From NCBI RefSeq assembly GCF_964213995.1, contig NC_135825.1:31930001-31994000 (forward strand): a stretch of 64,000 bases of DNA, in the 5' to 3' direction. The DNA comes from Mustelus asterias. Taxonomy: Eukaryota. Below are positions 3,421-61,372 of this stretch, one piece after another (positions within the stretch are counted from its first letter, which is position 1; each line of letters begins with the position of its first letter). Below the pieces are notes generated by a model. That model had not been told where the DNA came from and did no database searches. It saw only the letters and a program-made list of their open reading frames with translations. A program made the translations under genes and the position numbers.

Positions 3421-4806
3421 TTTCCATGCACTATGTCTCTCCTTTCTGCTGCTATGTGCTGATGTCCTTCCCTGTTGCAAAATTAGCTTAAACCCTTTCT
3501 CTGATTTTTGTTTGTGTGAAGCTTTTCAAAATGTACAGAGAGCTTGCAACAAGATGGTGTTATTTTGGCCATTATCAAAACATAACTTTGTGAAAGAATT
3601 AAATTGTCAGGTCTGAAAAGTCAGGATATTTCTCACTTTTGGAAATTCTCAACCAGAGAACAGAGCGGTAACATTGACAGTAAATAATTATTCCCTTAAA
3701 ACTAAAATCATTGCAACCCGAATAATTGATCATTTATAGAATGAGACATGTATGCAACTCTTTAGTGCAGAGATTTCCATACATTTCTGATTGGCCATTG
3801 TCCTTGCTGAGTTGCCCATTGCAGGATCCAGGATTGACCACACCTTGGGTGAATCGGCTTCACATAGACAACTTCTCATTTTTCAGTATCATCTTCCAGG
3901 AGTGACCTGTGCACAATTCCTTAGCAAAAATAGGAAGGCATTAATAAACCCACAGAATGAGAATGTAATTGGCAAGAAACCTCAGGATAGATAAGTCTGA
4001 GGGACAATAAGGAATAATATCTAAATGCTGTAAAGGAACAGAGGAATCTGGGTATGTGCAAAGCGCTGGGGTTTATTTCCAGAGGGATAGAATTGAAAAG
4101 CAGAGAAATCAGTTTAAATTTATAGCAAACCTCGTTAGATCATACTTGGAGTACTGTAACAGTTTGTCTTTCCAGATTATAAAAAGATAAAGAGGCACTG
4201 GAGATGGTGCAACAAAGATCTATTAAAATGATACCAGAACTGAGGTTACACCTAACAGAAAAAAATTGAACAGGTTGGAGTTATTTTCTCCAGAAACAGA
4301 TGATTAAGAGGTGATTTGATAGAGATAAATCTAACAGCTGCAGATCAGAAAGTTTAAACTGGGTATTGTGAAAACTTTTAGAAATTATATTCTGGGATAA
4401 AATTAACAGACGCTTAAACATGTGTGGCTCGATTAAGGAGAGTCAGCATGGATGTGTGAAAGGCAAGCCTTGATTAACCAACTTCAAATCCATAAAATCC
4501 ATAGAATCCACAGTGCAGTAGGAGGTCATTTGGCTCATCAAGTTTGCACTGACTCTCTGACAGAGTATTTCATCCAGGTCCTTTCCCCCATCCTATCCTT
4601 GTAACACCAGATATTTACCATGGCTAAAACATTTAACCTACACACTCGATTGAGTTTTTTAAATGAAATAACAGAGAGGATTAATAAGAGTAACATGGTT
4701 GATGTGGACTTCCAAAAAAAGCCTCATAATAGACCTGTCAGCAAAGTTGAAGCCCACAGAGTGAAAGGCACAGTGGCAAGATGGATACAAAGTTGGCTGA
4801 TTGACA

Positions 4807-4921
4807 GGAGGAAGTTTAACAACACCAGGTTAAAGTCCAACAGGTTTATTTGGTAGCAAAAGCCACACAAGCTTTCGGAGCTCCAAGCCCCTTCCAGTCC
4901 AACGCCGGCATCTCCACATCA
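4807..4921. mobile_element. Very short Penelope-like terminal-repeat insertion
   Basis: Shares aacaccaggttaaagtccaacaggtttatttggtagc and cagtccaacgccggcatctccacatc with 9059-9560; flanked by the direct repeat tgattgaca (4798-4806/4922-4930). Confidence 0.75.
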
Positions 4922-5312
4922 TGATTGACACGAAACAGAGTCATGGTGAACGGTTGTTTTTCAGATTAGAGGAAGGTAGTGTTCCCCAAGGTTTGGTACG
5001 AGAACCATAGGCTTGGGTATAGAGTACAATTCAAATTTTCAGGTGACATAAAACTTGGAAGAATGTTAAACTATGAGGATAGTGATAGAGTTCAAAGGAC
5101 ATGCACAATCTGTGGATGCGTGGCAGGTGAAATTTAATGCAGGAAAATGTGAAGTGATACATTTTGATGCAAAGAAAAGCAATACATATGAAATAGATAC
5201 AATTCTAATAGAGTGCAGGAACACAGTACCCTAGGGTTATATATGCAGAAATAGTTTGCAGGTTGTGAAAGTGGTTAAAAAGGCAAATGCGATCTTGAGC
5301 TACAGTGGCATA

Positions 5313-8968: not shown

Positions 8969-9119
8969 TTATTTTCAAACTGCACACACATACCATGTTT
9001 TAACATGGCAATTTGTATTGCTACCATGCCGATGCATTTACCCTGTCATCTCTGCAGTGCACAGTAAGAAGTCTCACAACACCAGGTTAAAGTCCAACAG
9101 GTTTATTTGGTAGCAAATA

Positions 9120-9156
9120 CCATAAGCTTTCAGAGCGCTGCCCCTTCGTCAGATGG
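9120..9156 (-). ncRNA. Minimal type I hammerhead ribozyme motif (PLE-associated)
   Basis: Minus strand reads ccat-CUGACGA-a-ggggc agc gctct-GAAA-gc-UU-atgg; stem II is closed by a G-U pair. Confidence 0.7.
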
Positions 9157-9422
9157 AGTGAAAATCTGTTCTCCAACAGTGCACAGACACAGAAATCAAG
9201 TTACAGAATACTAATTAGAATGCAAATCTCTACAGCCAGCCAGGTCTTAAAGGTACAGATAATACAGTACAATACACATCTCTTTAACCTGTGTTTAATG
9301 TTCCCTCCACCCACATTATCTGTACCTTTAAGACCTGGCTGGCTGTAGAGATTTACATTCTAATTAGTATTCTGTAACTTGATGTTGTGTCTCTGTGCAC
9401 TGTTGGAGAACAGATTTTCACT

Positions 9423-9459
9423 CCATCTGACGAAGGGGCAGCGCTCCGAAAGCTTATGG
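9423..9459 (+). ncRNA. Minimal type I hammerhead ribozyme motif (PLE-associated)
   Basis: ccat-CUGACGA-a-ggggc agc gctcc-GAAA-gc-UU-atgg: stem I ccat/atgg, stem II ggggc/gctcc, palindromic AGCU in place of stem III. Predicted cut after 9455. Confidence 0.78.
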
Positions 9460-9609
9460 TATTTGCTACCAAATAAACCTGTTGGACTTTAACCTGGTGT
9501 TGTGAGACTTCTTACTGTGCTTACCCCAGTCCAACGCCGGCATCTCCACATCATGACTACCATCGACTCTGCAGTGCAACAAGGATAACATCGAGCACAC
9601 TGCCAGCAC

Positions 9610-10492
9610 AAAGTAACTAAAGGTATGCAGAGGAACAGGTAGTATTGAGAAAGCAGGAGGGCTGCAGAGGACTTGGACAGGTTGGAAAGTGGGCAAAGAA
9701 GTGGCAGATGGAATACAATGTGGAAAAGTGTGAGGTTATGCACTTTGAAAGGAGGAATGGAGGTATAGACTATTTTCTAATGGGAAAATGCTTAGGAAAT
9801 CAGAAACACAAAGGGACTTGGGAGTCCTTGTTCAAGATTCTCTTAAGGTTAACGTGCAGGTTCAGTCAGCAGTTCGGAAGGCAAATGCAATGTTAGCATT
9901 CATGTCGAGAGGGCTAGATTACAAGAACAGGGATGTACTTCTGAGGCTGTATAAGGCTCTGGTCAGACTCCATTTGGAGTATTGTGAGCAGTTTTGGGCC
10001 CCATATCTAAGGGAGGATATGCTGGCCTTGGAAAGGGTCCAGAGGAGGTTCACAAGAATGATCATTGGAATGAAGAGCTTGTCATACAAGGAACGATTGA
10101 GGACTCTGGGTCTGTACTTGTTGGAGTTTAAAAGGATGAGCGGGGGTCTTATTGAAACCTACAGGATACTGGATGCTTCCCTGAGTAGGAACCAGAGGTC
10201 ACAACCTCAGGCTGAAGGGACGATCCTTTAAAACAGAGACGAGGAGGAATTTCTTCAGCCAAGGAGTGGTGAATCTGTGGAACTCTTTGCCGCAGAAGGC
10301 TGTGGAGGCCAGGGCATTGAGTGCCTTTAAAACAGAGATAGGTAGGTTCTTGATTAATAGGGGGATCAGGGGTTATGGAGAAAAGGCAGGAGAATGGGGA
10401 TGAGTAAAAAATCAGCCATGATTGAATGGCGGAGCAGACACGATGGGCAGAGTGGCCTAATTCTGCTCCTATGTCTTATGGTCTTATGGTCT
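9610..10492 (+). mobile_element. 5'-truncated CR1 LINE
   Basis: WQMEYNVEKC, LYKALVRLHLEYCEQFWAPY and LERVQRRFTRM motifs; tail of ttatggtc repeats. Confidence 0.93.
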
Positions 10493-48195: not shown

Positions 48196-48505
48196 AGGTG
48201 TTGCTGGGCACTGGGCGCTGGCCTGGGCTTGCAAAATCCTACTAACAGTCCTGGTTTGAGACAATTCACACCTCTTTAGCCTGAGATTATCCCTCTCTCC
48301 ACACGTATTGTTTGTACCTGTAGAGAGTTGATTACCTGCAATGGCTCGCATTCCAACCATTATCTTGCAATTGAGTCTCTATCTATATATGCCATGTTTG
48401 TGAATCCACCTCTCCACTCACCTGATGAAGGAGCAGTGCTCCGAAAGCTTGTGACACCAAATAAACCTGTTGGACTTTAACCTGGTGTTGTGAGACTTCT
48501 TAATA
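48196..48505 (+). mobile_element. Penelope-like terminal repeat inserted in the RTE
   Basis: Ends ...aaataaacctgttggactttaacctggtgttgtgagacttct as at 9470-9512; flanking repeat tattctta (48188-48195/48506-48513). Confidence 0.8.
48418..48454 (+). ncRNA. Minimal type I hammerhead ribozyme motif (PLE-associated), intact core
   Basis: tcac-CUGAUGA-a-ggagc agt gctcc-GAAA-gc-UU-gtga; stems I and II fully Watson-Crick paired. Confidence 0.8.
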
Positions 48506-61242: not shown

Positions 61243-61372
61243 CATGATGTGGAGATGCCGGCGTTGGATTGGGGTGGGCACAGTAAGAAGTCTCACAACA
61301 CCAGGTTAAAGTCCAACAAGTTTATTTGGAATCACGAGCTTTCGGAGCGCTGCTCCTTCATGAGGTGAGTGG
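61243..61372 (-). mobile_element. Penelope-like terminal repeat fragment with a mutated hammerhead (61332-61368)
   Basis: Reverse complement of the 9423-9553 segment; the core reads CUCAUGA. Confidence 0.8.

Follow-up and report, generated by a model that had tools for sequence, protein, structure and literature searches.

Two inverted stretches of hammerhead-bearing sequence, enclosed by one short target site duplication (TSD), occupy positions 9050-9578 of a 64,000-nucleotide piece of the Mustelus asterias genome (hereafter the window, meaning the whole stretch that was analysed), and they raise the question of what kind of element leaves such a palindrome and by what route. The locus itself is ordinary, one stub among tens of thousands and of a known class: it is a 5'-truncated, non-coding, back-to-back insertion of an abundant autonomous Penelope-like element (PLE) that encodes a reverse transcriptase (RT) and a GIY-YIG endonuclease (EN). 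Its likely origin, to which we assign a probability of about 75%, is that the element's enzyme cut the two DNA strands, with 12 bases between the cuts, and that the RNA of the element was copied from both cut ends.

Anatomy of the insertion and its parent element

The inverted arms (9059-9263 and 9315-9520; 205 and 206 bp) lie 51 nt apart and differ by four substitutions and one indel, and the 12-bp TSD, CTCTGCAGTGCA, stands at 9050-9061 and again at 9567-9578. The features are as follows.

9050-9061, plus strand: left TSD copy; its last 3 nt (GCA) match the element too
9062-9263, minus strand: short-end arm, an antisense pLTR/3' UTR copy that ends at the "short" site (equivalent to 9517) and has no tail
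9102-9107, minus strand: AATAAA of the short arm
9120-9156, minus strand: minimal type I hammerhead motif of the short arm, in which C11.1 has become U at 9132 and the closing pair is G-U
9264-9268, no strand: 5-nt junction joining both 5'-truncated arms, from comparison with sister copies
9269-9566, plus strand: long-end arm (3' UTR/pLTR), beginning 55 nt past the parent stop codon
9423-9459, plus strand: minimal type I hammerhead motif of the long arm, predicted cut after 9455
9472-9477, plus strand: AATAAA of the long arm
9518-9566, plus strand: one-sided PLE "tail", with the ATG of the parent ORF at 9553-9555 (MTTID...)
9567-9578, plus strand: right TSD copy; its first base also continues the parent ORF

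Contigs from three of four other runs (X9, X16, and X17; X5 gave no contig) follow the left flank to 9060/9061 and then continue in the right flank. The TSD is genuine, since the 12-mer is single in these orthologous empty sites, and the insertion is recent, since three other runs carry the empty site; inverted arms of about 205 bp, a 12-bp TSD, and a young insertion had all been put forward in the original prediction, and all three stand. Arm divergence was rejected as a dating tool because lineage variants make up three of the four substitutions. The right flank of the insertion holds, at 9640-10000, a high-copy repeat by read depth, which from its resemblance is likely a LINE fragment.

The 30 closest loci have the 3' end in common and a 5' extension that varies, with the entire ORF as its upper limit; two of them share a stretch of 1,531 nt. 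In sister loci an RVT_1 match (E 5e-07) and a GIY-YIG match under the Pfam cut-off lie directly upstream, and the parent ORFs (892 aa) contain RVT_1 (E 7e-10), DKG and YIDD motifs, and VVYLIRC..C..WYIGET, with a Pfam GIY-YIG score of 18.7 bits against a cut-off of 22.6; PF01541 is annotated on many homologues, and the closest named homologues of the parent protein are shark proteins (84-92% identity). A Penelope-like origin, as had been proposed, is thus borne out by the RT and GIY-YIG ORFs of the sister loci, and the suggested search for an autonomous PLE with the same ends succeeded both in these 892-aa ORFs and in a copy, L054, that has an 898-aa open RT-EN frame and a pLTR 99.6% identical to the long arm of the window. 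As the long arm matches this pLTR and starts 55 nt past the stop codon, 9269-9314 is 3' UTR, 9264-9268 is the sole junction, and 9553-9567 is the start of the ORF. The 51-bp "spacer" of the original prediction is therefore correct in length but not in nature, 9269-9314 being element sequence common to sister copies, and its statement that RT and GIY-YIG coding sequence is missing holds at the locus, except that the first codons of the parent ORF are there. The P0001 protein contains a CHSNLCKTC linker (CX4CxxC) and RCKKGC, and the parent is assigned by this cysteine linker motif to the Neptune/Nematis type, which an excerpt of PMC8557442 defines by a CX2-5CxxC linker before GIY-YIG and two cysteines within the core.

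The family is large: a first look at the RT part in the genome gave 26,023 candidates, with all 150 that were scored at 97-100% identity, and two hammerhead patterns gave 64,467 and 38,678 exact matches (more than 100,000), controls giving 0. Locus L053 has the layout pLTR-ORF-pLTR plus an inverted arm, its long arm agreeing with the internal rather than the terminal pLTR, and the 3' ends of the family form two clusters. Elsewhere a PLE ORF within a tandem repeat yields a 1,918-aa stop-free frame (L058:633-6389), and near-identical 3.2-kb loci on several small contigs (L002-L005; L007, L009-L011, L013), are PLE copies in segmental duplications or arrays. Frames beside PLE copies at L051:6307-7422 and L054:5698-7999 resemble LTR-retroelement pol.

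Hammerhead motifs and the ends that they predict

Both hammerhead motifs and both AATAAA signals are present where they had been reported, in the minimal type I form with palindromic AGCU. The plus-strand copy has every type I feature considered (CUGANGA, extra nucleotide, GAAA, UH, G10.1-C11.1, palindromic stem III), as stem I CCAU/AUGG, CUGACGA, an extra A, stem II GGGGC/GCUCC, GAAA, and AGCU; the minus-strand copy has G10.1-U11.1. The reported stem I change to TCAC/GTGA at 48418 and 61332 was also confirmed and is compensatory, and the copy at 61332 has a damaged core (CUCAUGA). Among 198 downstream-anchor sites, the strict core was found in 134, stem I CCAT/ATGG in 90, and TCAC/GTGA in 14; in a sister subfamily stem II is longer and shows further variants. 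In 131 distinct variants, 93.7% of cells were paired and two stem I pairs changed on both sides (87 cells; 0/500 shuffles), the number of covarying pairs was not above shuffles (326/500), and stem II changes were one-sided. Since the pair count does not exceed shuffles and a single subfamily split is involved, the claim of covariation holds for the two stem I pairs and goes no further. The bare core pattern occurred 5 times in the 64-kb window against 7.7 expected, which is not above chance. A covariance-model scan, proposed with the original prediction, was negative for hammerheads: Rfam returned nothing at the gathering score, no hammerhead family at E<=10, and only generic hairpin matches. 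The monomer fold had a z of 0.33, and when two ribozyme copies were co-folded, the hammerhead dimer was not the lowest-energy form. These putative ribozymes are identified by their full anatomy and by family comparison, and at this locus they are passengers from the parent pLTR, where selection on them is likely. A CGGAUGA core variant, with 18 exact matches in all (L125-L142, chosen for the variant), occurs in several two-armed copies in the short arm only.

In a read-through transcript from either strand, the antisense arm is made first, and computed folding gave -384 kcal/mol for the full hairpin against -10.5 for the hammerhead fold. Because the antisense arm leads and the hairpin far outweighs the hammerhead fold, masking would be the default and the proposed self-silencing switch is not borne out; by this modelling the ribozyme of this copy would be masked in any read-through RNA, and with one sense ribozyme per strand a cis dimer is impossible.

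The predicted cut was set against the 5' ends of genomic copies by counting matches that begin at the cut or at upstream and downstream control points, with 30 loci inspected per subfamily. In the GTGTGG subfamily, 1,732 matches began at the cut and 437 just upstream, about a threefold difference after allowing for letter sets; in 13 of 30 loci all element sequence upstream of the cut is missing, and by eye 58 among 100 matches listed lacked U at -1, where evenly spread breaks would give about 14. Part of this pile-up could come from RT stalling or microhomology. The ATGG subfamily, to which this copy belongs, had no clear pile-up, with 454 matches upstream, 786 at the cut, and 1,386 at a downstream control that takes in a microhomology hot spot and covers more subfamilies; the break falls exactly at the cut in 5 of 30 loci.

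Paired ends, a symmetric target, and how the insertion may have arisen

Across the family, 3' ends fall into two classes, 209 of 429 lying at 9505-9527 (short) and 194 at 9546-9566 (long), with 14 between. All 93 TSD-bounded divergent pairs combined one long and one short end, as did the 88 that were left once 5 rows in tandem or duplicated flanks had been removed; 35 of 35 later loci followed suit, giving 123 of 123 TSD-bounded two-armed insertions, many of the loci having been picked for their two arms. When adjacent divergent pairs were counted with or without a TSD, 107 of 113 were long plus short, and the other six (long plus long or short plus short) included none with a TSD. Apparent TSDs measured 10-18 bp (12-13 bp in 65 of 93). 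Junction microhomology was absent in 14 of the 62 short and 6 of the 36 long ends that could be scored (88 of each). In the window, older one-armed copies at 48261-48502 (plus strand) and 61243-61371 (minus strand) end one at the short and the other at the long site.

The targets of the family are two-fold symmetric and read (C)TG-NN-[12 bp]-NN-CA(G). Merging homologous targets reduced the 88 to 73 unrelated ones, 30 of them with an exact 12-bp TSD; these 30 had T-4 in 26, G-3 in 25, C+3 in 26, and A+4 in 25, with no strong signal in the interior, and in 13 later sites, which were not homology-merged, the same positions agreed in 11, 11, 12, and 13. CTG and CAG at 16-nt spacing occurred in 16 of 73 targets (control mean at random sites, 0.04), and a CAG peak 11-14 nt outside the ends appeared with no TSD required. 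The motif is a preference, both full half-sites being found in only those 16, and the window locus fits it poorly (T-4, A+4, and G+5 agree; C-5, G-3, and C+3 do not). One homologous site, judged from flank translation to lie in a LINE RT-coding region, accounts for 14 of the 88 targets (L019, L021, L032, L050, L053, L057, L061, L063, L102, and others); its W-L-x-x-R-x-Q-R codons supply TG and CA at the preferred spacing, and a 121-bp two-armed copy at 4804-4924 of the window appears at the same hot-spot site. Neither a symmetric PLE target motif nor the long-plus-short rule was found in the paper listings and excerpts that the literature search covered.

The long-plus-short pairing and the symmetric targets favour a staggered double-strand cut primed from both ends, and if both 3' overhangs serve as primers, divergent arms within a TSD would be the predicted outcome. 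A dimeric RT-GIY-YIG protein would nick the two strands, in each case about 2 nt 5' of CA(G), so that the 3' overhangs are 12 nt long. One 3'-OH would prime around 9512-9523 and the other around the start codon (9548-9567), with 1-3 nt of microhomology as an aid; the two cDNAs would stop early and be end-joined at the centre. A model of residues 1-330 of the parent protein supports an N-terminal homodimer through residues 42-77, with a score of 0.47 against 0.00 for the best control, runs agreeing in at least 49% of contacts, and pLDDT of at least 61; it covers the N-terminal third, was built with the alignment unused, is silent on nuclease geometry, and may owe its pass to memory. Among homodimers, 21 of 30 microbial and 17 of 29 eukaryotic ones attained the pass mark (7 of 16 for animals), as against 0 of 23 and 0 of 30 single chains.

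Other routes to a palindrome must be weighed against this double-strand cut. Fold-back self-priming, in which a single cDNA folds and copies itself, has been proposed for PLEs in an excerpt of PMC3846280, and it would account for arms that are mostly of one lineage (55 of 75 pairs agree fully in stem II and loop, against 5.9 expected) and for the many centres that join without a gap or with a short overlap. We nevertheless judge it improbable. Folding back from the tailed arm predicts that this arm is always the longer, whereas the short-end arm was longer in 39 of 88 and the long-end arm in 20, and that either can be longer argues against it; folding back from the short, tail-less arm cannot supply the tail. 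Furthermore, the same half-site and microhomology are found at both outer junctions, and 25 of 77 pairs, this locus included, differ at non-CpG sites shared within lineages (about 7 of the 25 are alignment artefacts across the centre of tiny palindromes). The arms in the window differ at three such sites, each allele being common to 7-51 other loci, which makes it unlikely that either arm was copied from its partner. The same short/long-arm allele difference, in the same direction, recurs between separate insertions (L001/L012, L042/L061, L167/L174, and L168/L177), as if the parents carried two non-identical pLTRs.

Arms that differ at lineage-shared sites would also suit a site hit twice by independent insertions, or an inversion-duplication that came later, and the hot spot was indeed hit repeatedly; we find this very hard to sustain, since the two arms lie within a single TSD, whose 12-mer occurs once in the empty site, and neither the strict pairing rule nor the excess of divergent over convergent pairs within 4 kb (29 versus 1 by eye in the first 100 matches listed) would be expected. 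The original prediction of a distinct, young, non-autonomous palindromic family, its hairpin a ribozyme-masking or siRNA switch, drew on the missing RT and EN, the very stable hairpin, and the abundance of short palindromes, and now has little to recommend it: its closest relatives encode RT-EN, sister copies share only a 3' end and extend 5' variably, and the long arm is the pLTR of an RT-EN copy. A fixed dispersed unit, MITE- or SINE-like, was not seen among the sampled sister loci, two-armed spans running from about 140 to 7,600 bp with differing centres and the breakpoint pair of this locus recurring in none other of the 30 closest; with the antisense arm transcribed first on both strands and C11.1 lost from the minus-strand motif, a switch is no better placed. 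That the palindrome was created in assembly is barely conceivable: none of the run contigs compared spans the whole element, and those of X3, X4, and X8 leave the junctions uncovered, but the arms differ at five places, one of them is tailed, the TSD matches the empty site, and contigs from X1, possibly the assembled sample, cross both outer junctions without differences.

Having thus preferred a double-strand cut primed from both ends, we lean, by a narrow balance, towards a fuller account in which the shark Neptune-type PLE is sequence directed: a homodimer would read the inverted (C)TG-N16-CA(G), make a break with a 12-nt stagger, and prime both ends at two fixed, non-equivalent RNA sites, one reaction thereby explaining why Penelope elements have an inverted arm, a tail at one end, and a TSD, and sister-subfamily copies that start at the hammerhead cut would be a genomic record of a minimal ribozyme working in vivo. 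The symmetric target, the 12-nt stagger, and the two fixed priming windows offer a precise substrate design for tests of mechanism. If the account is true, this retrotransposon breaks both strands at preferred sites and writes its copy in from either end.

Comparison with known systems

In the twin priming of L1, both target strands prime RT to give an inverted 5' part within one TSD, the second primer annealing internally so that the two parts do not overlap. By contrast, both arms of the shark locus start near the same 3' region, so that the 3' region is duplicated.

The typical EN+ PLE insertion is 5' truncated, with an inverted pLTR, a one-sided 30-40-bp tail, and a TSD (excerpts of PMC8557442 and PMC3846280), and the shark insertions share the inverted 5'-truncated arm, the one-end tail into the ORF start, and the TSD. 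Those excerpts describe TSDs of 8-10 bp or targets in microsatellites and mention no symmetric motif, whereas in the shark family the core is 12 bp, (C)TG-N16-CA(G) is preferred, and the long-plus-short rule is near-absolute. The origin of the tandem and inverted structures and tails of PLEs is stated there to be undefined (PMC8557442), and the family data bear on it.

Such an architecture is already published, down to the pair of minimal hammerheads, one per strand: dual motifs of this kind, 100-700 bp apart and probably from truncated PLEs, were reported in 2014, when monomers did not cleave and dimers cleaved weakly (excerpt of PMC4209133). The shark motifs resemble them in the short stem I, the extra nucleotide 9/10.1, G10.1-C11.1, the palindromic 15.2-16.2, and the high variability within the genome; they differ in a stem II of 5 bp in the shark copy and in being a predicted ribozyme, and that excerpt does not name shark elements. 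Non-LTR retrozymes (excerpt of bioRxiv 10.64898/2026.07.22.740005) are likewise non-coding, carry a type I hammerhead, and derive from PLE pLTRs, but they consist of head-to-tail tandem units with at least two sense ribozymes; the shark locus, where one pair of divergent arms carries a lone ribozyme motif on each strand, was on this ground rejected as a retrozyme.

The closest experimental parallel is with PAc, a Poseidon element of Anolis carolinensis studied in vitro by Frangieh et al. (2024; excerpt of PMC11167929), which cleaved and extended both strands; two RT start sites bracket its tail, and its ribozyme needs protein. This sole in vitro PLE study left TSDs and inversions unaddressed in that excerpt. 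The shark element shares with PAc two start sites that bracket the tail, a cut and extension of both strands (inferred in the shark), a predicted dimer (through an N-terminal helix in PAc), and a pLTR hammerhead. PAc belongs to the Penelope/Poseidon clade, uses AT-rich ATT sites, starts 111-118 nt into the ORF, and primes without homology (excerpt of PMC11167929), whereas the shark element has its long site at the start codon, a spaced inverted target motif, and 1-3 nt of junction microhomology.
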